64,000 bases of DNA, from positions 4,215 to 68,214 of the forward strand of contig JBEKXQ010000010.1 of assembly GCA_049511915.1 (NCBI GenBank), written 5' to 3'. Positions 11,452-62,667 of this stretch are shown here, one piece after another. Each line of letters starts with the position of its first letter. Positions within the stretch are counted from its first letter, which is position 1. The notes beneath the pieces were generated by a model, which did not search any database, was not told where the DNA came from, and saw only the letters and a program-made list of their open reading frames with translations. The stretch is from Candidatus Korobacteraceae bacterium (GTDB taxonomy: Bacteria; Acidobacteriota; Terriglobia; Terriglobales; Acidobacteriaceae). The translations under genes and the position numbers were made by a program.

Positions 11452-12333
11452 ATGAAAAACATGCTGCGGAGATTGGGTCAATCTACGAGTTGGAGTATCG
11501 AGGCCAAGCTCATTCGTCAATCAATGGGATGGGCGGTCACGTCGGCAATTGTAGAAGTGCTTGTGTGTGCGCTGCTGATTTTAGATTCAGGCTCCGCACG
11601 GGCCCAAGTTCGCACCGCAGTCGCGACGGAGCCTAACGCTCTGCCAACCCTCGTCATTGGATTCATGGGCGGGTTTGTTCACAGCGACGATCTCCGGCAC
11701 TCGGAAGCGCAGCTCGCCCAACGTCTTCAGCGAAGCTATGGCGATCGCGTTACAGTTGAGATGTTCGAGAACCGCCAAACAGCCCAGGCTCATGAAGCCA
11801 TCGTCGATTGGCTCACCAGATTGGGCGACGCCAGAGTCACGGATGTGGGGCCACCACCCCAGATCGTTCTATTCGGTCATAGTTGGGGAGCGTCGGCCGT
11901 TGTCTATCTCTGTCGCGAATTGGAGCGCGAGGGAATCCGAGTCTCGCTTACCGTCCAGGTTGACAGCGTTAGAAAACACGGCGAGGATGACTCGCTGATC
12001 CCGGCCAATGTCGCCGAGGCGGCCAACTTCTATCAACCCAACGGCATTCTGCACGGCCAATCGATGATCAGGGCCGCAGATCCCTCACGTACTACGATCC
12101 TGGGCAATTATCGTTTTGCTTATCAACATGAACCTGCAGCGTGTCATGCATACCCGTGGTACACCCGCCTCCTGTTCAAAGGCCACACTGCGATTGAATG
12201 CGATCCACGGGTTTGGTCACGCGTTGAGACCATGATTGAAAACCGCTTGCCAATTACGCGCACGCCTGAAGCTGCGGCCTACTCTGCTCCCGTCCTCGAC
12301 ATAGAGGTCATCCCAGATTTCTTGGCGCTGTAA
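11452..12333 (+). CDS. Secreted/anchored alpha/beta-hydrolase-like protein
   Basis: Signal-anchor N-terminus and a GxSxG nucleophile elbow (LFGHSWGASAV). It lies in visibly AT-richer DNA. Confidence 0.55.
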   Translation: MKNMLRRLGQSTSWSIEAKLIRQSMGWAVTSAIVEVLVCALLILDSGSARAQVRTAVATEPNALPTLVIGFMGGFVHSDDLRHSEAQLAQRLQRSYGDRVTVEMFENRQTAQAHEAIVDWLTRLGDARVTDVGPPPQIVLFGHSWGASAVVYLCRELEREGIRVSLTVQVDSVRKHGEDDSLIPANVAEAANFYQPNGILHGQSMIRAADPSRTTILGNYRFAYQHEPAACHAYPWYTRLLFKGHTAIECDPRVWSRVETMIENRLPITRTPEAAAYSAPVLDIEVIPDFLAL

Positions 12334-12573
12334 CCCCGGGCACATCCTCGTTGGATGTATCTCCGGTTTCGATAGGTCATGGTGGAAAGGACTTGTTGCC
12401 ATGCCGAACACCTCAAGTCACTCCGGTGTGCCGCACAACAAGTCTGTTCTGGCAATGAAAAGTAGAGGAAGGAAAGTTAACGACGCGATGAGAGGACCCC
12501 ACGAAAATCCGACAGGTTTGGGCATTTCTGGAAGCGGCTTCTCCATTTATCAATGAGTTAGGCGGGATAATGA

Positions 12574-12623
12574 ACTGACTCTTAATCAGTAGGTTGAAGG
12601 TTCGATTCCTTCCGCGCTCACCA
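12574..12623 (+). pseudogene. Truncated tRNA-Lys(CTT): 3' half only (anticodon arm, variable loop, T arm, acceptor 3' strand, CCA)
   Basis: Anticodon stem ACTGA/TCAGT with loop CTCTTAA (U33, anticodon CTT). Variable loop AGGTT. T arm GAAGG-TTCGATT-CCTTC. Acceptor 3' strand CGCGCTC, then A and CCA. The expected 5' acceptor strand GAGCGCG and a canonical D arm are absent upstream. Confidence 0.6.
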
Positions 12624-12929
12624 CCTAGTGCCTTATATCCACTCTGGGCATATCTTCGTTTCACCTTGCGTGGCTGAGAGGCCCCTTGGGAATCCAGCGA
12701 ACCTCCTGCAAAGGCTTTGGTCTGTGCCCAGACAAAGATGTCATCGCTTCGCTGTCATCGGCATTCGACGGACCCATGCTCATTTCTTTCTCGTTGCTGT
12801 ATAGTATTTGCTTTATGCTCCCGCGTCGAAACTGGGGGAGCGTCGAGCATAGGAGGCGGCACCGGTTTTGACTGGCCTTGCCACAACCCCTCAGCCGAGA
12901 TTGACCATCAGAGAATTTAAGGAGAGAAC

Positions 12930-13007
12930 ATGGAATGGACTAGCCCGCAATTTGAAGAAGTTTGTTTGAACTGCGAGATTAACTGCTACGCCAACGCGGA
13001 ACTGTAA
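12930..13007 (+). CDS. PqqA-like 25-aa precursor peptide (MEWTSPQFEEVCLNCEINCYANAEL)
   Basis: ATG with AAGGAG 5 nt upstream, 26 codons to TAA. It has the PqqA signature W-x-x-P ... E-x-x-x-Y (E16/Y20) followed by A-E-[IL]. It is too short for the supplied ORF track. Confidence 0.6.
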   Translation: MEWTSPQFEEVCLNCEINCYANAEL

Positions 13008-13232
13008 ACTAAGCGATGCGCATTGAGATTCTGGCTCCGACGCGAGGGTGAACTTCCGCAGTGGAATTGCAACTGCCGAAAACTGTCGGTCCCTGCGAGC
13101 GGAGGTTTTTCTTGGAAGCCACTGACCCCCTCTGCTCGCTATCGATCGACCATCGCCTGATTGACGCCGCGCGGAGTGTTGCAGATAGCGACGCCGCACA
13201 GTCTCCTGGTCGTATAGAAGCAGCAAGCGGTG

Positions 13233-14483
13233 ATGGCTGATACGACGACATCGGCCACCCAATCCGACCAGCAGCGCCCCGGTATGTTCAATACATTTCG
13301 CGCGCTACGCCATCGCAACTTCCGGCTGCTTTGGGTCGGACTGGCCATCTCTGCGGTCGGCACCTGGATGCAGATCGTCGCCCAGAGCCTGCTTGTTCTG
13401 AGGATCACCCACGGGTCGGCATTCGCCTTGGGCACCGTCTCGCTCGCCCAGGCCTTGGCATTTTTCTTTTTTGCGCTCGTCGGCGGGAGCGTTGCCGATC
13501 GCGTCGATAAGCGCCGCCTTCTTATCTTTACTCAAAGTAGCTGCGCGGCATTGGCTATTTTGTTAGGTTTCTTTACACTCTTCGGCGTCATCCGGCTCTG
13601 GATGATTCTGATCCTTGCATTCCTGAACGGAACTCTGCTGAGCTTTGATCAGCCCGCACGCGGCGCGCTCATTCCAGTACTTGTTCCCACGGAAAGTCTG
13701 GGAAACGCCATTAGCTTGCAGGCGATGACCTTCAACGGGGCGGCGACGCTTGGACCGGCGTTGGCAGGACTTGGTGTGGCCACACTTGGTTATGCCGGCA
13801 ACTTCTTTCTAAACGGTGCCAGCTTCCTGGGAGTGCTGATTGCTCTCTACAGCATGCGCGTGCCCGGCGAACCGCCCCATCACCAATCGACCTTCCGGGC
13901 GATTCGCGACGCGCTCGGCACGGTCCGGCGGGACACCATCTTGCCATGGGTCTTATCCGGATACGCTGCGCTGCTCTTTCTGGGACCGTCGTCCGCGTTG
14001 ATCCTGCCCGTTTTCGCGGTGAAGATTCTTCACGTTGGCCCGGAACGTCTCGGCTTGCTGTTCTCTGCAGCTGGCGTCGGAACCATATTGGGCGCGTTGT
14101 TCCTGGCTTCTCTGGGCAGCAATCCACGAAGAGGCCCTATTTACCTGGCCGGGATTTTCATCTGGGTTGCGGCGCTAACGGGATTTGCCCTTAGCGCACG
14201 GTTCTGGATTTCCATGACCGCGCTACTCGTCTTTGGACTTGGTCAGACGCTCGCCGGAACGACAACTATTACGCTATTGCAAACCCGCGCACCGCAGCAG
14301 ATGAGAGGACGACTGATGAGCCTGAACACGCTGCTCATTATGGGCATTCGCCCGTTAGGTGATTTCCCGGCCGGCGCCTTGATTGCGGGAATAGGAGCTC
14401 CGGGAACGGTCTTACTGAGTGCCGGCCTAGTGGGGCTTTACGGACTAGGGCTTGCGATGCGGCCCGCGATACGTTCAACCTAG
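13233..14483 (+). CDS. MFS transporter (MFS_3/EntS-like subfamily)
   Basis: About 12 TM helices. The N-terminal FRALRHRNFRLLWVGLAISAVGTWMQ is typical of this subfamily. Confidence 0.85.
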   Translation: MADTTTSATQSDQQRPGMFNTFRALRHRNFRLLWVGLAISAVGTWMQIVAQSLLVLRITHGSAFALGTVSLAQALAFFFFALVGGSVADRVDKRRLLIFTQSSCAALAILLGFFTLFGVIRLWMILILAFLNGTLLSFDQPARGALIPVLVPTESLGNAISLQAMTFNGAATLGPALAGLGVATLGYAGNFFLNGASFLGVLIALYSMRVPGEPPHHQSTFRAIRDALGTVRRDTILPWVLSGYAALLFLGPSSALILPVFAVKILHVGPERLGLLFSAAGVGTILGALFLASLGSNPRRGPIYLAGIFIWVAALTGFALSARFWISMTALLVFGLGQTLAGTTTITLLQTRAPQQMRGRLMSLNTLLIMGIRPLGDFPAGALIAGIGAPGTVLLSAGLVGLYGLGLAMRPAIRST

Positions 14484-14704: not shown

Positions 14705-15532
14705 TCACGACGCATCCATCCTTCCTAACCCAATGCCGAGCACCGCCCCAACAATTACGTCGGTGGCGTAGTGATAACCGTCATAAACCGCGCCCACGCA
14801 CATCAGCAGCACAGGAACCAACAGCCACGGCGCAAAGCGCGGCAGAAATCGATAGGCACACATCAACACAACGAAGGCCATCATGATGTGGGAACTGGGG
14901 AAGGCATTTCCGTGCACGCCGGCGTGATTCTGGACCATGCGTACTAAGTGCTGGAATAGGCCGCCTCCTGCGGCTCCGATCTGCTGCACCCCGGCGCGAT
15001 TTGCTGGGCTCTGGGTTGGGAAGAGGAGGTAGAGGATGTAACAAATCACGTATCCCACACTGAGGGAGGCAGTCAGTTTACGAAATCCTCCTATGAATGG
15101 CGGGCGCTTGCGCCAAGCCCACAGCAGACCTCCCACAATCGGGTACAAGGGATAAAATGCGAAGTAGCCGAACTCGAGAAATTCGATCAGCCAGCTGCGC
15201 GCGTGGGCGTGCATCCACTCCATCGGCGGCGTGCGGAAGAGCAGCGATTCCAACGCGACGATGTGTTCACTTTGCCAGGTCCCGCGAACGGCAAGCGAAA
15301 GGAAGGAAATCTCCTGGAAGACCGTCACAAAGAAGACCGCAGGAAGCCAGTCATGCGCAAATTCCCAGGCCTCGCCACTGACGCTCTTGGAGGCGATGAG
15401 CACGATAGCCGCCATTGAGCACAAATTCCACACCACATATTCCGGCCAGTGCAGCACACGGTCGTGGCGCACGCACACGAGAAGCGTCAATGCAAAATGC
15501 ACCGCGAGATATATGCGGTCAGGTAGGTTCAT
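14705..15532 (-). CDS. PAP2-family membrane phosphatase/phosphotransferase
   Basis: Multi-TM ORF with PAP2 C2/C3-like motifs FPSSHIMMAF and GYHYATDVIVGAVLG. Confidence 0.8.
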   Translation of the reverse strand: MNLPDRIYLAVHFALTLLVCVRHDRVLHWPEYVVWNLCSMAAIVLIASKSVSGEAWEFAHDWLPAVFFVTVFQEISFLSLAVRGTWQSEHIVALESLLFRTPPMEWMHAHARSWLIEFLEFGYFAFYPLYPIVGGLLWAWRKRPPFIGGFRKLTASLSVGYVICYILYLLFPTQSPANRAGVQQIGAAGGGLFQHLVRMVQNHAGVHGNAFPSSHIMMAFVVLMCAYRFLPRFAPWLLVPVLLMCVGAVYDGYHYATDVIVGAVLGIGLGRMDAS

Positions 15533-43294: not shown

Positions 43295-44161
43295 CTAAGC
43301 AACCGAAAGGTTGACCGGTTCCTGGCGATCGACACGATGGACAAAGGCAATTGCCTGGCGCTCGGCCCACCGGCCGTCATAGCCATCCGGAGCGGCCAGG
43401 AAAGCGCAATGTCCCCCCTGCATGGTTTCCTTGAAGGTGATGTGCGAATTGCCCAGGAGCTTCGCCCGGGTTTCCGGCAAAACGCGAATGAAGGGGTCGT
43501 CCTGGGCATGAAGCACCAGAGTGGGAACGGCGATGCGGTCGATGACAGTGGCCGAGGCGGCGCGCGTATAGTAATCTTGGGCGTCGCGAAACCCGGAGTA
43601 GCGGGCGGTGATCTGGTCGTCGAAGTCGCGCATGCTGCGCATGCCACGCAAGTAGCGCACATCGTAGCGATCGGGATAAAGGGCAGCCTTGCGCAACATG
43701 CGGCGACGGAGTCCCAGAAGAAACTTCCACTCGTAAACGCGATTGACGCGGGCGTGCAGCGCGTCAGAGGAAGGTGCAAGGTCCATCGCGGGAGAGACGC
43801 CAACCCCCGCTTTGACTTGCGGCGGAGCATCTGTTCCCCACTCACCGAACAGCTTCAGCACCAGATTGCCTCCCATGGAATATCCCACGAACGCCAACTT
43901 TTGCAGGCCATCTTCGTTAATCAGAGTCTGCGCTATTGCGCCGACATCGCCCGACATGCCGGAGTTGTACAAGGTGGGACCGAGATGCTCCGTGTCACCA
44001 CAGTTGCGCATGTTCATGCGGACTACGTTCATCCCCGCTGCCCAGGCCTTGCTTCCGGTACCGATCACATACTGCGATTCGCTGGAGCCTTCGAGTCCAT
44101 GCACGATGACGAGGGTCATCGCGGTTTTGCGCTCGGGCTGCCAATGGCAATGGCACAGCAC
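43295..44161 (-). CDS. YheT-like alpha/beta hydrolase (minimal ORF; homology continues upstream to about 44290)
   Basis: Motifs HGLEGSSESQY, GYSMGGN, FDDQITA, LHAQDDPF and GGHCAF. An upstream in-frame FRPRRPFVSGHAQTIAGNFLPRR matches the family N-terminus but has no canonical start (see findings). Confidence 0.8.
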   Translation of the reverse strand: MLCHCHWQPERKTAMTLVIVHGLEGSSESQYVIGTGSKAWAAGMNVVRMNMRNCGDTEHLGPTLYNSGMSGDVGAIAQTLINEDGLQKLAFVGYSMGGNLVLKLFGEWGTDAPPQVKAGVGVSPAMDLAPSSDALHARVNRVYEWKFLLGLRRRMLRKAALYPDRYDVRYLRGMRSMRDFDDQITARYSGFRDAQDYYTRAASATVIDRIAVPTLVLHAQDDPFIRVLPETRAKLLGNSHITFKETMQGGHCAFLAAPDGYDGRWAERQAIAFVHRVDRQEPVNLSVA

Positions 44162-44475
44162 CTGGACTTCCGGTTCGACCTGAAACAGCCGCTCCTGCGG
44201 CGGAGGCAGAAGATTGCGACGCGGCAGGAAGTTTCCGGCAATCGTCTGGGCATGGCCGCTGACGAACGGGCGGCGCGGCCGAAAGGGCTCGCCAAAGAAA
44301 TCGGGCTGCTGCGCCGCCTCGGTGGCGGGAAGCCGAAGCTCCGACGCCCCGCGGGCAGATTCATTGTTGAGAAGGATAGATCAAAGCTCCTGCATCTATA
44401 ATGATGTGCTAATGGTTGCCGCCGATTCGCTATAAACCAGCGAAGGGCTGCGAATCACGCGAATTGGAGTATTTG

Positions 44476-51049: not shown

Positions 51050-52279
51050 ATGTCAATGTCGAAGACCACGAAGTTTATTGTCCTTGCTCTCTCGTTCCTG
51101 ATTGCCTCGTTCGTCATAATCGGTCAACTGGGCGTTAAGGCCGACACCAACGACGACGGCTCCTATCGTCAACTGGGCGTGTACAGCGAGGTGCTGTCGC
51201 GCATCCGCGACGAGTACGTCGAGGAGCCCAACATTGCGGCCGTAACCAACGGCGCGCTGCATGGGCTGCTGGAATCGCTGGATGCCAACTCCAGCTATCT
51301 GGATCCCACGGAGTTCAAAGAGTACAAGCAGCGCAAGGAAGGCAAGGCTGCTATTGGCGCCGCGGTTTCCAAGCGCTATGGCTATGCGGCCGTGATCTCG
51401 GTGATTCCGGGCGGGCCGGCTGACAAAGCGGAGATCGAGAGCGGAGACATCATTGAGGCGATCGAAGGCAGGTCCACGCGCGACATGTCGCTGGCCGAGA
51501 TCGACGGGCGGTTGACCGGACCACCGGGATCGGTGGTCAATGTTTCCGTGGTACGGCCGCGGCGGGCAGAGCCGGTGAAGTCGGCGCTTACGTTGGCCGT
51601 GGTTACCGATCCGCCTCCCACCGACAAGATGATGGCGGATGGCGTCGGCTACATCAAGGTGGACGACTTTCCCAAAGGACGCTCGCAGGAGCTGGCCAAC
51701 AAACTGAAGGCGCTGCAGAAGGATGGCGCGAAGAAGATCATTCTCGACCTGCGCAACTCGGGCGATGGCGAAGAGGACGAAGGTATTGCGACCGCGAATC
51801 TTTTTCTGAATCACGGCACGATCACCTATCTGCAAGGCCAGAAGTATCCCAAGCAGACTTTCAACGCCGACCCGCAGAAAGCGGTCATGACCAATCTACC
51901 GCTGGTGGTGCTGGTGAATCGCGGCACAGCCGGTCCGGCGGAAGTAGTAGCGGCCGCAATCATGGAGAATGCGCGCGGCGACGTGGTCGGCGACAAGACG
52001 TTTGGCGCGGGCGCGATCCAGAAAGTGATCGATATGCCGGATGGTTCGGCGCTGATCCTGTCGGTGGCCAAGTACTATTCGCCTTCCGGCAAGGCGTTGG
52101 AGGACACGGCCATCACGCCGAATATCCTGGTTGCCGACAATAACGATGACTTCATCGCTCCCGATGAGGACGAGAACGCCGAGGACCAGGCGCAAGAAGA
52201 GAAGCAGAAAGCCAATCAGCCGGACGATCAGCTCAACAAGGCAATCGAGGTGCTGAAGACGCAGCCCACCAAGGCGTAA
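51050..52279 (+). CDS. S41 (C-terminal processing peptidase) family homologue with PDZ domain; catalytic Ser and Lys both substituted
   Basis: Signal anchor and PDZ (GDIIEAIEG). The S41 core reads VLVNRGTAGPAEVVAAAI...GDKTFGAGAIQ where the family has GSASASE and TFGKG. Confidence 0.85.
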   Translation: MSMSKTTKFIVLALSFLIASFVIIGQLGVKADTNDDGSYRQLGVYSEVLSRIRDEYVEEPNIAAVTNGALHGLLESLDANSSYLDPTEFKEYKQRKEGKAAIGAAVSKRYGYAAVISVIPGGPADKAEIESGDIIEAIEGRSTRDMSLAEIDGRLTGPPGSVVNVSVVRPRRAEPVKSALTLAVVTDPPPTDKMMADGVGYIKVDDFPKGRSQELANKLKALQKDGAKKIILDLRNSGDGEEDEGIATANLFLNHGTITYLQGQKYPKQTFNADPQKAVMTNLPLVVLVNRGTAGPAEVVAAAIMENARGDVVGDKTFGAGAIQKVIDMPDGSALILSVAKYYSPSGKALEDTAITPNILVADNNDDFIAPDEDENAEDQAQEEKQKANQPDDQLNKAIEVLKTQPTKA

Positions 52280-56406: not shown

Positions 56407-56655
56407 TCAGCGCCGGTAGAGCAAGTAGTCGATGGCGAAGTGGAAGAAGGTGAGAATGCTGGCGAGTGCGGTTGCGACGCCGGTGAAGCGCTGAAGGTAG
56501 GCTTCGTGGCGATCGACGCGCTCCTCGATTTCCTGGATCTTGCCGTGGTTGCCGTTGCCGATGACCCAACGCATGTTGGCCTTGAGTTCGGCGAGGTCGG
56601 AGAGAACTTTCTGTTCGAAGTCAGTTAGCGTGACGATACTGGGACATGTACTCAT
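56407..56655 (-). CDS. Small protein with C-terminal TM helix (phage-module associated)
   Basis: 82 aa. 4-nt overlap with the upstream chimeric gene. C-terminal VATALASILTFFHFAIDYLL. Confidence 0.5.
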   Translation of the reverse strand: MSTCPSIVTLTDFEQKVLSDLAELKANMRWVIGNGNHGKIQEIEERVDRHEAYLQRFTGVATALASILTFFHFAIDYLLYRR

Positions 56656-57806
56656 AATGGGTAGTCCACGTGCAGCAAGATGGAATAACGCGAGTATTTG
56701 GCGGGCGATGATCCGTCATATTGCCGCAGATAGTAATTCTGCACGCGTTCGAGACGCGGCAGAGTGAAGGTTTGGGTGGTGAAGCGTCCGGCGAGATTGC
56801 CGCTGTCGCTGGCACCCCAGCCGCCATCAGAACGGCGCGCTTCGATGCCGCCGCCGGACGGAGGCGCGACGCCGGCGTCGAAGGTGATCTCGGTCGCGAT
56901 GACGTTGGTCACCTGGGCTGCCGTAAGAGAATCGATGTAGAGCGAAGACGAAGGCGTGCCCGTGTCGTAGATGGTGGCAAGGGGCGCGGCCAAGGTGATG
57001 GCTTCGAGTTTGAACGCGATGGGCTCATCAGCATCGGTGGCGAATTTTATGTCGTATTGCGAGCGATCGTCGGCGAGCGAGATGGCTTGCAGATCGACAT
57101 CGCGGACGATGGCGGTGAAGGCGGCTCCGCGCAACGGCGCCGACACCTGAACGGCATTGCCGGGAAGTACATCTTCGACCGGCAGCAGATCGCTGAGAAC
57201 TTTGTATTCGCCCAGCCAGGCGGGTTGCACGGTGTCGTCCGCCGCGGTTTCCACGCGGTATTCGCTATCGAATACGGGAAAAACGATCTGGCGGACATTG
57301 GCGCGCGAGGTGACCAGCGCGCCCCGGCGCAACGGCTCCGGCAGATTGTCCAGGAGCCGGTGCACGATGCGGAAGATTTCCTCGGCGGAACGCTGGTCGT
57401 GCGCGACCTGAACGCTGAGCGTGCCCTCGCGAGTGATGCGGCTGATAAAGAAGCGCGCGGCGACATAGGTAGTGACGCCAAGCTGACGCGCTTTTAGCAC
57501 GATGTTGCGATTCGTGCTACGGCGCTCCAGATCCTGCTGTGCGCGGTTGAGTATGAACTGGCGGAGATGGCCGTGCTTGTCGCGAATTTTCAGCATGGCC
57601 CACATCAGGTACTCGCGCCAGGTGGTGGCCGCAGGCGAGGTCTTGTACTTGCCGATGACATAGTTCGGCGAGGGCTTCTCGTCGAGGTGGTTGCTGCACG
57701 CCTTGAGTACATCGGCGGTCAGTTCGTCTGACAGTTCGGGCAGCCCCGACGTGTCGGGTGGGACCGCAGGTTGCGGTTTCGAATTGGTTGTGCGTTTTGT
57801 GGGCAT
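56652..57806 (-). CDS. Chimeric phage-derived ORF: terminase large-subunit N-terminal ATPase fragment fused to an unrelated C-terminal half
   Basis: T4 gp17-like Walker A context NIVLKARQLGVTTYVAARFF and the downstream ...LLDNLPEPL...SEYRVETAADD. No Walker B, catalytic Glu or nuclease domain follows. The sequence changes instead to a tail-protein-like region. Confidence 0.7.
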   Translation of the reverse strand: MPTKRTTNSKPQPAVPPDTSGLPELSDELTADVLKACSNHLDEKPSPNYVIGKYKTSPAATTWREYLMWAMLKIRDKHGHLRQFILNRAQQDLERRSTNRNIVLKARQLGVTTYVAARFFISRITREGTLSVQVAHDQRSAEEIFRIVHRLLDNLPEPLRRGALVTSRANVRQIVFPVFDSEYRVETAADDTVQPAWLGEYKVLSDLLPVEDVLPGNAVQVSAPLRGAAFTAIVRDVDLQAISLADDRSQYDIKFATDADEPIAFKLEAITLAAPLATIYDTGTPSSSLYIDSLTAAQVTNVIATEITFDAGVAPPSGGGIEARRSDGGWGASDSGNLAGRFTTQTFTLPRLERVQNYYLRQYDGSSPAKYSRYSILLHVDYPL

Positions 57807-57978: not shown

Positions 57979-60900
57979 CTACTGGATGGTCTGGCAGTAG
58001 AAGCTGTCGCCGGTCATCTTGTCGGTGCTGGCGACGTTGAAGGTGAAGGAGAGGGTGTCGGCGCTGGCGAGGTTCTCGGTCCATGCGAGGCCGGTGTAGG
58101 GCGCGATGGTTGTGCCGCCAAATGCGGCCCAGGGGACGTTCACGGTTTCAGCAGTCAGCGATGAGAAGGTGAAGATCTCGATGGAGGCGTCGCCGCCATT
58201 GTTGCCGGTTGTGTAGGTGGTCGGATAAGTGTAGGCGGTGCTACCTAACTTCCAACCGACGGTTACGGTCGCGCTTCCCGTGGTGTGGCGGGCGCGAGCG
58301 AAGCACTTGATTCCCGTTCCTACCGAAAAAGTTCCGGCAGGCAAGCTCACACTGTAGAGCGCAGCGGTTGAGCCAGTACCGGTGATAGCCGACGTGGGGC
58401 CTTGAATTGTTCCCGAGACTACATGCATGGCCGGGACGGTGCCGCCGAGTTGCGAATACTGCACCTGGCCGCAGGTAGGCGCGACGCCGTTGGTGCTCGC
58501 GACTTCGTATTGACCGGAGGGACATGCGCCTGCGTTGGGCCAATTCGAAGCGGTCGGAATGGTTGGCTTGTTGCTCAGGTCGTTATAACTGCCGGAGGTT
58601 GCAACGGTTGCCGGCGTATTGCCGTTGATCTTGGCGACGGTGGGATTGGGATAGCTGCCGCTGAGATCGCCGCCCGCCGCGCCGTTCGCGCCGGAGCCGC
58701 AGCCGTTGCATGTAGTGACGTTCAAGGTGCCGACGGTCGCGGTGGTCGAGTTAACATCGGCGGCGTAGACCTCGGGCCAGCGGACGTTGGGATCGCCAAT
58801 CCAGCGCACGCTGGTGTCGCCCGTCGCCCAGACGGGAATGAACGTCCAGGTCGTCGTGTCATAGCCGGGATTGGTCCAGCGCCATCCCATACGCGCCTGA
58901 TACTCCGGCGTCTGCCCGAATTGCGTGCGATTGAAGGTGCCGAACTTCAGGCCGCCGTCGTAATAGTTAGCGTTGTCGCCGTTGCCGATGGCCGCGATGT
59001 CGGTGGAACTGTCGCTGCCGGCGCCGAACATCTCGGTAGGCGTGCCGTTGGGACTCGCCTGCATGAAGGTGTTGGGCTGGAATGTGAAAGCCTGGTTGCC
59101 GAAGACAATGCCATTGCTCAGGTAGAAGACAGGCTGCTTGAGCGCAGTGGCGACGTTGGCGATGACCTGGCCGCGGACGGTGTCGTTCAGGATATTGACA
59201 TAACCGTTGAGGTAAAAGTTTTCCTGCTCATACTGGATGGAGCCGGGGCCAGTGCTTTCGACGAAATTCTGCTGGGTGGTGCCGAAGGCATAACCGCCGT
59301 CAACTTTAATGGAGGCTAGAACGGTGTTGCTGGTAGTGGTGGCGAGGATGACAGGATCCTGCGCCGGGGGATTGCAGATGGTGCTTTCGGCTTCGGCCTT
59401 GAGACCGTGGATGGTTAGTGTGCCAGCCGAATCGAAATTAGCGGCGATGAGCGATGTGTGATTGCAATCGCCGCTGATGCCGTTGAGGACGGCGATGCCG
59501 GACAGGTTGGTGAAGGCAACGCCGGAACCATGCACCGCGAGATTACTGGTGATATTCATGATGTCTGACGGTGTGGCAGCGTAGCCGATGTTCTCGAAAT
59601 TGTGGTTGTAGCAGGCGGAGAGTTCGACATCGTGAACGCTGGCGACTTCGCCCATGTTCTCGACTTTGAGGCAATCGCCGGCGGTTTGATTCGCGCCGTT
59701 GCCGACGAGGCGCAGGAATCCGATCTCGCCCCAATGCCACCACTGCGGATTGGTCGCGCCGGTGCCGACGGTGGAAGTGGCGATGAGATCGGCGTTCAGA
59801 CCGTTGGCGGGCTGAAGGATGGTCCCGTGATTGGTTGAGGTGCTTGCGCCCAGCAGACGCGCGCCCGGCTGCACGATGATGCCCGCAGTCACATTGTTGT
59901 TGCCATTGTTGAAAGTGACAGTCGCGTTGATGGTGTACGTAGTAGGCGCGAGTCTGACAATGACCGAGTCGGGAATATTGAAGCCGGGTCCGATGTAGGG
60001 CGCGGTGCGATCGTCGACGACTGCGCCGAGCACGCTGCCATTGTTGTAGGCCGCGTTGATGGCGGCTTGAATGCTGGAGTAGTGGCTGACGAGGAAGTCG
60101 ACGCCGGGAATGTTCTGATAGGTCAGCGCGGTGGCGCTGACGGTGTTAGGCGTGACATTGCCGATGGGCGGAGGCGAGCTAAGCGAGACGTTGCTGCAGG
60201 TGTTCCAGGTCATGGGCGCCGAACCGCCACCCGACGATACGAGACATTGGCCGGCCGAGCCCGGAGTCGTAGGCAACGTCATTTGAAATGCGCTGAAAGT
60301 AGCAGAGGCAGCCGACAAGGTTACGTTGTTGGCCGCTGTGGTGGGCGAGAACAGCTGAAGGCCAAGATTGTTGATGCCGACGACCGCATTGCCGCCGACG
60401 CTCCACTCAAAGCCGGCTGAGGCAGGAACGCCGTAGAAGAGGCCGTCGATTGTGCCGAACGCCTCGTAGTTGGAGACGCCGGTGTCGCCCGCGGCGACAG
60501 AACCGTACTTTTCGTTCTTTACCACAATGTGGGAGCCGCTGTTGACGATGCCGTACTGATAGGGTGGAGTGCGGTTATCGTCGGCCTCAACGCCGTCGAG
60601 CAGAATGATGCGGGAACCGCTGTCAAGCTGAACAATGTGCGAGGCGGGACTGGTCGACATTCCCCCATTGCCGGAGACTATTTTGGAGGCGACCACGTCG
60701 GCAGCGCCGACGAACGAGAGACACGGCCCATACGACTGAGTGCAATTGAGGTCGTCGATCTCGACCATGTAAGAGTCTTCCACCATCATGCCGCCAAGAT
60801 CGGGTTGAGGCTGCACAGGAGAATTCCAGGCTCCGCCGAACCACTGGACATCCTTAACCGAGCTGTTCTTGACGTACTTCAAGTGGACGCCGTGATTGGG

Positions 60901-62667
60901 ATAGCTGGGGATGGATGACTCGTGGGGCTTAGCGCCGATCAGTGAGACGTTCGTAGCCCACATTGTGGGAGTACCCTCGATGAAGATGTCGTCCCAATCG
61001 CCGGGATTGTTGCCGCGATTCGACTCCGAGATGTTGGGGAAGTTGACATTGACAGAAATGACGTAGAACTCGACCGCCCCCAAACCGTAGAGATTCGCGT
61101 TGCCTACGTTGATCCACATCACGCCGCCGTCACGGGTGACACAACCCACACTCTGGCAGAACTGGGAAGGCCGCGTGGCGGCGCTGGCTCCGACTTGCTG
61201 GGTATAGAAAGCGTAAGCCCCGGGATTGTTGGAGGCAGGCAGGATCATCTTGGGCTCGAGATAGGTGTGACTGGCGACCCAGTCGCCGCCCTCGTTGGCG
61301 TCGAGGTGCATGCCGTAGAGCTTGTTCATGTACCCTGTGGGACCATCGAGAACGTTGCCGCCGGAGACGATGTGCCAGCCGTCGCCGGAATTGCCATTGG
61401 CCTGCGACATGCCGGAGATGTGGCCGTCACCACCCCAGACCACGCCATCGCCACCGCTGGTATCGGAGACGGTGTTGTACATGTCACCCTGAGCGGCAAT
61501 GGTGAGAATGTTGGCGCCGGTGAAGGCGCGAGCGTGGACACCGTGGATCTTTATGGAATAGACCGCGGGAGCGAAGATGCCAAAGGTGCCGATGCTGTTG
61601 CCGTCCAGGGCGCAGTTCAGAACCTGGGTGCCGTCGGCGGTGTGGTAGTTGCCGTTGTTGACTTCGGCATCGGCGAAGTTGGCGATGAGCGGAGCCGCGG
61701 CGCCGGACAGCAACGTGGTGGGGGAAGTCTGGAGGAATGTGGCCGCGGGACAGTCGATAACGACATTAGGCGCGCTGACATTGATGCCGGGATTACCGTT
61801 GAAGGTCCAGTTGCCGGCGCCGAAGAGCAGGACGACCGGCTTGTTGATGGAGATGGTGGCATTGCAGGTCTGTCCCGGACTGAAGCCGCGCGCGTCAACG
61901 GTTCCTCCTGCGGCGGGCAGCGAGCCGATGGCGGCATTAATCTGAGCGCAGGGATCGGATTGCGGATAGTTGGCGGGATTGGGAATGCCGTTGGTGGTCT
62001 GCACCGTGAGAGCGGTGAAGTTGCCGGTGTTGGGCGTGACATTGCCGATGGGCGGAGGTGAGGAGAAATTTCCGCTACCTCCGCCGCTGGCGTCCACATA
62101 GGCCTTGTTGGCTGCGTCGCTGGGATTCTGCGGCGTGGGAACCGACGGAGAGCTGCTGAAGGTCTTCACCCCGGCGACAGTCTGCGCGTCGGTGAGGTCC
62201 ATGTAGTGGGAGTCGGCATACTCGCGAGTGAGAAATTGCGCCGCCTGATTCGCAGGAACCAGGGTGCTGCGAATGGCGCCGATGGTAGTGGTGGTGAGAT
62301 TCGGGACCGTCCAATACTCGGAGGCGGTAGATCCGTCGTCAAGTTTGTAAGTCACTCTGTAATAGGTGCCGGCGGGCGTTGCGCCGCTGTTGGGCGCGAG
62401 ACTGGCGTTGAACAGCCCGCCTGAGCCCAGGGTGACGGTGAGATTGCCGGCCGCGACCGGCTGTCCGGCGGCCGTGGTGAAGGCCGACCAGAGAATGACG
62501 ACGTCACCTTGCGCGGAAGAGCCGTCGGCGCGATAGACGGTATCCGAAATCTGGCACAGGGTAAGGCCGGGGCTGAAGGCGAAGACGGCCCGCGGAAGCA
62601 GGACGGCGAAGGCGATCGAGATCAGGACAGAAAAAAACCGCCCTGCAAGGCGGTGAGTGTTCGGCAT
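57979..62667 (-). CDS. Giant (1562 aa) secreted tail-fibre/tailspike-like protein with two beta-helix modules
   Basis: Signal peptide FFSVLISIAFAVLLPRAVFA. Tail-fibre motifs QTVAGVKTFSS.P.VPTP...ANKAYVD and DLSGSYPNPTV...SGSYNDLSNKPTIP. The PPPIGNVTPNT motif occurs twice, each time followed by a pectate-lyase-like region. Confidence 0.85.
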   Translation of the reverse strand: MPNTHRLAGRFFSVLISIAFAVLLPRAVFAFSPGLTLCQISDTVYRADGSSAQGDVVILWSAFTTAAGQPVAAGNLTVTLGSGGLFNASLAPNSGATPAGTYYRVTYKLDDGSTASEYWTVPNLTTTTIGAIRSTLVPANQAAQFLTREYADSHYMDLTDAQTVAGVKTFSSSPSVPTPQNPSDAANKAYVDASGGGSGNFSSPPPIGNVTPNTGNFTALTVQTTNGIPNPANYPQSDPCAQINAAIGSLPAAGGTVDARGFSPGQTCNATISINKPVVLLFGAGNWTFNGNPGINVSAPNVVIDCPAATFLQTSPTTLLSGAAAPLIANFADAEVNNGNYHTADGTQVLNCALDGNSIGTFGIFAPAVYSIKIHGVHARAFTGANILTIAAQGDMYNTVSDTSGGDGVVWGGDGHISGMSQANGNSGDGWHIVSGGNVLDGPTGYMNKLYGMHLDANEGGDWVASHTYLEPKMILPASNNPGAYAFYTQQVGASAATRPSQFCQSVGCVTRDGGVMWINVGNANLYGLGAVEFYVISVNVNFPNISESNRGNNPGDWDDIFIEGTPTMWATNVSLIGAKPHESSIPSYPNHGVHLKYVKNSSVKDVQWFGGAWNSPVQPQPDLGGMMVEDSYMVEIDDLNCTQSYGPCLSFVGAADVVASKIVSGNGGMSTSPASHIVQLDSGSRIILLDGVEADDNRTPPYQYGIVNSGSHIVVKNEKYGSVAAGDTGVSNYEAFGTIDGLFYGVPASAGFEWSVGGNAVVGINNLGLQLFSPTTAANNVTLSAASATFSAFQMTLPTTPGSAGQCLVSSGGGSAPMTWNTCSNVSLSSPPPIGNVTPNTVSATALTYQNIPGVDFLVSHYSSIQAAINAAYNNGSVLGAVVDDRTAPYIGPGFNIPDSVIVRLAPTTYTINATVTFNNGNNNVTAGIIVQPGARLLGASTSTNHGTILQPANGLNADLIATSTVGTGATNPQWWHWGEIGFLRLVGNGANQTAGDCLKVENMGEVASVHDVELSACYNHNFENIGYAATPSDIMNITSNLAVHGSGVAFTNLSGIAVLNGISGDCNHTSLIAANFDSAGTLTIHGLKAEAESTICNPPAQDPVILATTTSNTVLASIKVDGGYAFGTTQQNFVESTGPGSIQYEQENFYLNGYVNILNDTVRGQVIANVATALKQPVFYLSNGIVFGNQAFTFQPNTFMQASPNGTPTEMFGAGSDSSTDIAAIGNGDNANYYDGGLKFGTFNRTQFGQTPEYQARMGWRWTNPGYDTTTWTFIPVWATGDTSVRWIGDPNVRWPEVYAADVNSTTATVGTLNVTTCNGCGSGANGAAGGDLSGSYPNPTVAKINGNTPATVATSGSYNDLSNKPTIPTASNWPNAGACPSGQYEVASTNGVAPTCGQVQYSQLGGTVPAMHVVSGTIQGPTSAITGTGSTAALYSVSLPAGTFSVGTGIKCFARARHTTGSATVTVGWKLGSTAYTYPTTYTTGNNGGDASIEIFTFSSLTAETVNVPWAAFGGTTIAPYTGLAWTENLASADTLSFTFNVASTDKMTGDSFYCQTIQ

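Follow-up and report, generated by a model that had tools for sequence, protein, structure and literature searches.

A pqqA gene stranded by an operon deletion beside an EntS-like transporter gene in a Candidatus Korobacteraceae bacterium

The window analyzed here is a stretch of 64,000 nucleotides of DNA from a Candidatus Korobacteraceae bacterium. It contains a 25-codon open reading frame (ORF), which is followed by the gene of an MFS transporter. The locus comprises the following features, described with reference to two related loci, L005 (intact operon) and L207 (deleted operon).

12794..12809, + strand: upstream block TTGCTGTATAGTATTT, putative pqqA promoter; homology to the relatives with an intact operon starts here
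12919..12924, + strand: Shine-Dalgarno sequence AAGGAG, 5 nt 5' of the pqqA ATG; kept in all class-1 relatives
12930..13007, + strand: pqqA, 25 codons plus TAA, encoding the peptide MEWTSPQFEEVCLNCEINCYANAEL (ORF list and sequence reading)
13016..13102, + strand: pqqB remnant, first ~29 codons with frameshifts by 1-nt indels; aligns to L005 6975-7062
13103..13117, + strand: deletion junction, from pqqB codon ~30 to pqqE codon ~322; gap between two blastn segments, junction common to L207
13118..13232, + strand: pqqE remnant, last ~38 codons (DPVCSLSPDHHLIE... region) with a 1-nt deletion; blastn match to L005 9888-10004
13233..14483, + strand: intact MFS_3 gene for an EntS-like (DHA3-type) efflux transporter, last gene of the ancestral operon (Pfam MFS_3, MFS_1)

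An earlier note on this DNA had described a 26-codon ORF preceded by AAGGAG with a 5-nt spacer, and had pointed to the motifs W3-x-x-P6 and E16-x-x-x-Y20. Reading of the sequence bore out all of these. The Glu-x-x-x-Tyr pair of PqqA is present as E16-I-N-C-Y20 within the 25 residues of MEWTSPQFEEVCLNCEINCYANAEL, a length inside the PqqA range of about 20-40 aa, and W3 and P6 correspond to the leader recognized by PqqD, to which the peptide is predicted to bind. In PQQ biosynthesis, PqqD binds the N-terminal W-x-x-P region of PqqA and PqqE cross-links E16 with Y20; proteolysis, PqqB, and PqqC then finish PQQ.

The same 7-kb DNA was found, at an identity of at least 99.99%, in four independent assemblies from NCBI, ENA, and JGI; therefore, an assembly artefact can be ruled out. 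A collection of 15 billion proteins does not contain the exact peptide, which means that the gene is unannotated. Residues 2-9 of the peptide (EWTSPQFE; 12933-12956 of the window) resemble Strep-tag II (WSHPQFEK), and PDB sequence matches of the peptide were discarded as chance matches to the Strep-tag-like sequence.

The upstream block at 12794-12809 contains a -10-like element (TATAGT, 12800-12805) and is identical or nearly identical in the window, L207, L005, and L128. It is a putative promoter of pqqA, which since the deletion probably also serves the MFS gene. A scan of 12300-13400 for sigma-70 consensus promoters and terminators reported none, and an Rfam search of the locus gave a partial tRNA match upstream and no riboswitch or leader.

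PqqA was the only protein family matched by the peptide. It scored 20.4 bits against PF08042 (gathering cut-off, 21.1) and 19.7 bits against TIGR02107 (cut-off, 20), with an E-value of about 5e-4 in both cases, and the alignments span the entire models (positions 1-19 of 19 and 1-21 of 21). The HMMs, by which the earlier note had proposed to check the assignment, thus gave a divided answer: PqqA is the sole family found, but both scores lie 0.3-0.7 bit under the curated cut-offs. Because the window holds an estimated ~1000 small ORFs (extrapolated from 192 ORFs of ≥20 aa in 11 kb), an E-value of about 5e-4 alone is not significant; what identifies the gene is its orthology and synteny. Operon-linked orthologs with one or two differing residues scored 20.6-23.6 bits and passed TIGR02107; the values were 20.6 and 20.9 bits for the L131 type and 23.6 and 23.5 bits for the L005 type. 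Other acidobacterial PqqAs scored 26-32 bits, and the L207 peptide, which carries C12S, 18.0 and 19.0 bits. The score below the cut-offs can therefore be attributed to the lineage substitutions V11, C19, and N22.

In related Candidatus Korobacteraceae, the genes are ordered as Lactamase_B_2 (PqqB), TENA_THI-4 (PqqC), PqqD, Radical_SAM/SPASM (PqqE), and MFS, and the start of the MFS gene overlaps the stop of pqqE. A 25-aa pqqA ORF lies 8-9 nt 5' of pqqB, and its product is 88-96% identical to the window peptide (tblastn, intact-operon loci). The PqqA of L005 is MEWTSPQFEEVCLNCEINSYASAEL, and that of L131, L215, and L026 is MEWTSPQFEEICLNCEINCYANAEL. The intact pqq-MFS order was found in L005/L006, L007, L208-L215, L127, L128, L131, L136, and L138, among others, with MFS proteins that are 82-89% identical. 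PqqD and PqqE are the only maturases beside the peptide in these relatives. The conservation and the link to the MFS gene, for which the earlier note had suggested a check, were thus both found, with pqqBCDE lying between the two genes. Its main proposal, a PqqA precursor gene, is supported by this orthology and synteny with the operon-linked pqqA of relatives. Judged by these comparisons, the ORF at 12930-13007 is the positional ortholog of the pqqA that opens the relatives' pqqABCDE-MFS operon. The PqqA family thus gains a new member that had not been annotated, and the system is of a known kind. For relatives with an intact operon, the ENA assembly records bear neighbouring accession numbers (ERZ272499xx), which suggests that they come from the same study.

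The ATG of the MFS gene is located at 13233, 225 nt past the pqqA stop codon. This distance had been given correctly, but it had been overlooked that the spacer is a deletion scar. In a blastn comparison, positions 12794-13102 of the window match L005 6748-7062 at 81% identity; this segment extends from the upstream region through pqqA to ~88 nt into pqqB. Positions 13118-13400 match L005 9888-10171 at 75% identity, a segment made up of the terminal ~117 nt of pqqE together with the beginning of the MFS gene. About 2825 nt of L005 (7063-9887) are missing, namely pqqC and pqqD in full and the greater part of both pqqB and pqqE. A GCC microhomology is possible at the junction (13103-13117). The pqqB remnant reads MRIEILAPTRG (11 codons) from an ATG at 13016 and then meets a stop at 13049-13051, and the pqqE remnant has 64% identity to PqqE residues 323-350 (tblastn).

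The metagenomic locus L207, the MFS protein of which is 94% identical to that of the window, has this junction too, and a 1-nt deletion in the pqqB stub is common to both loci. Therefore, the deletion predates the split of the window and L207, and the differences between them arose later. Taken together, the alignments show that one deletion of ~2.8 kb in the common ancestor of the window and L207 stranded pqqA from the ancestral pqqABCDE-MFS operon, and that a promoter, a ribosome binding site, pqqA, a pqqB-pqqE stub fusion, and the MFS gene were left. The gene had already been described as an orphan, rightly in that no intact pqqBCDE adjoins it, but its cause, the loss of ~2.8 kb from an operon, had escaped notice.

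A further deleted operon was seen in L134 (1-2605, Ga0306920_100257132), where an in-frame fusion connects pqqB plus the initial ~150 codons of pqqC with the final ~34 codons of pqqE; the MFS gene comes next. The 3' breakpoint, measured on L005, is located within 12 nt of that of the window. As read from its breakpoints and fusion, L134 is an independent pqq deletion in a related lineage. Together with the window, it suggests a recurrent loss of pqq genes in which selection keeps about 110 nt ahead of the MFS gene.

The window lacks the gene found before pqqA in the intact relatives, and the upstream flank has been rearranged. A 3' fragment of a tRNA-Lys(CTT) lies ~320 nt 5' of pqqA (Rfam match at 12556-12612, + strand). 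By eye, ~50 nt of the fragment up to the CCA end look identical to the tRNA of L207, where a full tRNA-Lys (687-762, - strand) is found at the corresponding place on the opposite strand. ARAGORN found no complete tRNA gene anywhere in the window. This looks like the remnant of an att site or like an inversion. On the other side of the locus, a gene for a PAP2-family phosphatase (14705-15532, - strand) lies between the MFS gene and an F420/PPOX-like gene of 132 aa. This phosphatase gene is found only in the deletion lineage (window and L207) and is absent from intact-operon relatives such as L005 and L208.

The 64-kb window contains no intact pqqB-E, radical-SAM/SPASM, or PqqD-like gene and no gene for a PQQ-dependent dehydrogenase. 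The earlier statement that pqqB/C/D/E, radical-SAM, and peptidase genes are all lacking is thus right for intact pqqB-E and radical-SAM genes, but fragments of pqqB and pqqE are present, as is a Peptidase_S41 with a PDZ domain (51050-52279), which is housekeeping-like and lies 38 kb from pqqA. The remaining genes are housekeeping genes, such as those for cytochrome bc and oxidase and for pentose-phosphate enzymes. Three ORFs, of 1562 aa (57979-62667, - strand), 384 aa (56652-57806, - strand), and 354 aa (43337-44401, + strand), have no Pfam match at E <=1e-4. In the search for a second pqq cluster of this genome, a database search with PqqC and two look-ups of genomic context (P0183 and P0198) led to other MAGs and not to GCA_052144955.1.

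Because the deletion is older than the split from L207, the two loci allow a comparison of how the parts left behind have changed since then. The divergence between the window and L207 is as follows.

5' UTR and promoter: about 14-17.5% divergence, 2 indel events
pqqA: 2 of 78 nt (2.6%), one change synonymous and one C12S, 0 indels
pqqB stub: 14% divergence, 2 indel events
pqqE stub: 17.4% divergence, 1 indel event
other intergenic DNA: 31-36% divergence, 3-4 indel events each

The differences in the stubs are distributed over the three codon positions as 2/7/3 (pqqB) and 6/7/8 (pqqE), without a third-position bias, whereas the same comparison in pairs of intact operons gives the biased counts 1/3/8 and 2/1/8. 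This even spread indicates that the stubs decay neutrally, and they serve as a neutral yardstick. Against 38 of 223, the 2 of 78 in pqqA give p = 7e-4 (Fisher test; two descendant lineages and 78 nt only). The conserved stretch starts and ends at the borders of the pqqA ORF. In pairs of intact operons with a similar MFS divergence, pqqA differs at 1-4 positions; therefore, the orphan evolves no faster than the functional copies. A constraint on RNA structure was rejected as the cause of the nucleotide conservation because folding of the pqqA region gave no unusual stability (z = +0.99). C12S in L207 was likewise rejected as a sign of decay, since S12 is also found in operon-linked PqqAs of the L186 and L154 type. 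The earlier note had expected a disrupted ORF with random substitutions in close relatives if the gene were spurious; in L207 the ORF is intact, with 2 of 78 nt changed. From this comparison of a small target in two lineages, the pqqA coding sequence seems to have been under purifying selection since the deletion.

For the MFS protein, an identical sequence exists in Candidatus Korobacteraceae MAGs (Terriglobales), and close homologs number in the hundreds. In NCBIfam, the best similarities of the protein are to the H+ antiporter 2A0121 and to EntS, under their cut-offs. The comparison with L207 gives a pS of 0.29 and a dN/dS of 0.08, indicating purifying selection. EntS-like MFS genes are linked to acidobacterial pqq operons in two gene arrangements in at least 20 species. 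The MFS gene follows pqqE in L005, L007, L026, L042, L044, L094, L097, and L103, and it is divergent from pqqA in L018, L027, L034, L043, L051, L059, L068, L075, L078, L088, and L098. Export of PQQ across the inner membrane by an ABC transporter was treated only as a hypothesis in a 2020 paper. On the basis of its linkage, the EntS-like MFS could be a candidate for the inner-membrane PQQ exporter.

The peptide has three Cys residues, which had been taken as a hint of an undescribed RiPP maturation route. To survey them, contigs of one genome per species were scanned with the codon-degenerate DNA pattern W..P..EE.C..CE[IV]N.Y, in which C12 and C15 are fixed. The scan gave at least 118 acidobacterial species or loci with a PqqA that contains C12 and C15, many of them directly 5' of intact pqqBCDE. 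When every locus was read to its stop codon, the peptides were 24-26 aa in length, and nearly all were exactly 25 aa. Peptides of the Korobacteraceae type are located in pqqABCDE-MFS operons, and those of a second type (M.WETPQVEEICLSCEINSYSNGDF) are located in pqqABCDE operons with a divergent MFS gene upstream. The pqqA genes were also read in loci anchored on MFS or PqqC, independently of the pattern that fixes C12 and C15. Operon-linked peptides in these anchored loci include EEISLSCEINSY, EEISCSCEINSY, EEVSVSCEINSY and EEVSVSAEINSY (GTG start), and EEIALNCEINSY. W-x-x-P is present in every operon-linked peptide of the MFS-anchored loci, but the scans demanded this motif, so that it gives no independent evidence of conservation.

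C19 occurs alongside intact operons in L022, L026, L031, L042, L097, L103, L131, L136, and L215. In homologs from intact operons, C12 is replaced by Ser or Ala, C15 by Ala, and C19 by Ser or Thr; thus, the cysteines are not essential. They are not required as cross-link donors, and a dedicated maturase other than PqqD and PqqE is found neither within the 64 kb nor beside the peptide of the relatives. In the Methylorubrum PqqA sequence quoted in the earlier note, a Cys is also present at position 12. The suggestion of a new RiPP route is not supported by residues that occur in at least 118 species (C12 and C15) or with intact operons (C19) and that can all be replaced. The cysteines are lineage-typical, replaceable residues of genuine PqqAs outside the cross-link and do not point to a new chemistry. 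Some of the pqqA genes with a GTG start (VNWTTPDFEEVSVSCEINSYAPAEI), which lie between pqqB and the MFS gene in L154, L155, L159-L161, L165, L180, and L181, encode Cys-free peptides. Such genes escape small-ORF scans limited to ATG, and the idea that clusters of the L154 type lack pqqA was dropped when a GTG-start pqqA was found.

We consider it probable, at roughly 0.6, that the ORF, a real pqqA stranded by the ~2.8-kb deletion and held near-constant since, is still translated, and that it most likely provides the precursor of PQQ. The peptide would still be translated and useful after the deletion, and its most likely use would be as the PQQ precursor for pqqBCDE encoded elsewhere in the genome. 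An unlinked pqqBCDE, of the kind that the earlier note had invoked for a dispersed pqqA copy, would most plausibly be the partner; this fits the measured purifying selection, and there is no such set in the 64-kb window. The EntS-like MFS, a constant companion of these operons, would plausibly export the product. If the MFS protein exports PQQ, the retention of this constrained gene fits continued PQQ production. Against continued use, one of the two changes in L207 is non-synonymous and affects the otherwise common Cys12.

Alternatively, pqqA may be a non-functional relic. PQQ synthesis would then have been lost, with PQQ scavenged or dispensed with, the gene being too small to have been hit yet and the promoter being kept for the MFS gene. 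This reading accounts for the deletion of pqqBCDE, the pseudogenized stubs, and the rearranged upstream flank, in which the preceding gene of the relatives is gone from the window. It also agrees with L134, where an independent pqq deletion likewise spared the MFS gene and ~105 nt at the 3' end of pqqE, and with the C12S change and lower PqqA HMM scores (18.0 and 19.0 bits) of L207. Moreover, PQQ is a public good, and auxotrophy with scavenging is common (10.1101/2024.06.04.597491). In view of the L134 deletion and the frequency of PQQ scavenging, a simple loss of PQQ synthesis is plausible. However, about 12 substitutions are expected in 78 nt of decaying sequence and 2 were observed, with no indel against 3 in the adjoining scars (p about 7e-4). 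The conservation is bounded by the ORF borders, the rate of pqqA equals that in intact operons, and S12 is natural in operon-linked PqqAs (L186 and L154 type). We therefore regard a relic as unlikely, although it deserves serious attention.

Another possibility is that the ORF serves the MFS transcript as a leader or 5' element whose translation matters for ribosome loading, mRNA stability, or protection from Rho; the peptide as such would be of no consequence. Since the deletion, pqqA and the upstream block are the only obvious expression signals before the strongly constrained MFS gene. Furthermore, ~105-117 nt from the end of pqqE have survived the independent deletions of both the window lineage and L134, which points to MFS expression as a target of selection. 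However, if translation as such were all that is needed, most codons could vary, but just 2 of 78 nt differ, and the 5' UTR itself has diverged by about 14-17.5%. No terminator, attenuator, or stable structure was detected, and the 225-nt scar, which has stops in all frames, rules out translational coupling. Thus the locus shows none of the attenuator, terminator, or coupling features of a leader peptide or uORF, and we consider this role very improbable.

Equally slight are the chances that the lineage keeps PqqA for a task beyond the adjacent pathway, as the substrate of an unlinked, non-canonical maturase or as a Cys/Glu-rich, metal-binding or secreted peptide exported by the EntS-like MFS: the peptide is under selection without adjoining pqqBCDE, has three Cys and six acidic residues, and is retained beside an efflux-type MFS, and one paper speculated on an orphan PqqA in lanthanide uptake (PMC11317620), but neither a maturase nor an RRE or radical-SAM gene is present in the 64 kb, the peptide is simply orthologous to the PqqA encoded in operons, with cysteines that are replaceable in operon-linked homologs, and none of the 93 MFS-anchored loci has a module of pqqA and MFS alone in other lineages.

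The finding is largely explained by the reading of a stranded pqqA, and two testable loose ends are left, the conservation of the orphan and the MFS protein as a PQQ exporter. If purifying selection acts on the stranded pqqA, the organism should have either an unlinked pqqBCDE set or another use for PqqA. The EntS-like MFS accompanies pqq operons in two arrangements and can therefore be tested as a candidate exporter of PQQ across the inner membrane. The locus is also a caution for the annotation of RiPP precursors: a gene of 25 codons falls under the length limits of gene callers and under the HMM cut-offs, yet it is firmly identified by synteny, and what looked like a spacer beside a small ORF is the wreck of an operon. 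The erosion of the PQQ operon in abundant soil and peat Acidobacteriota, in at least two independent events, fits PQQ as a shared good.

Compared with the PqqA of pqqABCDE operons (PF08042/TIGR02107), the window gene has the same length of 25 aa, the N-terminal W-x-x-P, the E-x-x-x-Y, the strong ribosome binding site, and the same position. It differs in that pqqB-E beside it have been deleted and that its HMM scores fall 0.3-0.7 bit short. In one Terriglobia lineage (L040, L093 [chromosome OY969776.1], and L224-L226), pqqA is inverted and divergent from pqqBCDE, which indicates that pqqA functions without being part of the operon's transcript.

Stand-alone pqqA genes (class 3, L010-L126) were found, among the matches listed, in about 80 acidobacterial species (~80-90 loci). 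They encode a 25-aa peptide, M[QE]WTAPAFEEVCLNCEINSY[AV]SAKL, which NCBI annotates as PqqA (for example, L016 2429-2506 and L111 4322-4399). No pqqBCDE is present within the stored 8-kb stretches, which reach at most ~7.9 kb to either side. The site is conserved between a GAF-domain gene and a GT4/WecA-like glycosyltransferase gene, with DUF3443 and polysaccharide-export genes as neighbours. These Candidatus Sulfotelmatobacter-like genes resemble the window gene in the 25-aa peptide type and the lack of nearby pqqBCDE. However, they occupy another, conserved genomic site at a polysaccharide locus and carry no deletion scars.

PQQ scavengers of the E. coli type, which use the TonB-dependent importer PqqU, resemble the window in the loss of PQQ biosynthesis genes. 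Unlike in the window, where no PqqU was identified, conservation of pqqA is not expected in PQQ auxotrophs.

Orphan copies of pqqA are known in methylotrophs: Methylorubrum extorquens AM1 has the orphans pqqA2 and pqqA3, Methylovorus sp. MP688 has five copies, and Methylophilaceae have 3-12 (PMC11317620, PMC4109929). The unlinked copies are expressed, and the supply of PqqA can limit the yield of PQQ (PMC11317620, PMC4109929). These genes are unlinked to pqqBCDE, as is the window gene. However, the methylotroph orphans are extras beside an intact operon, whereas the window gene is the operon's own pqqA, stranded by a deletion.
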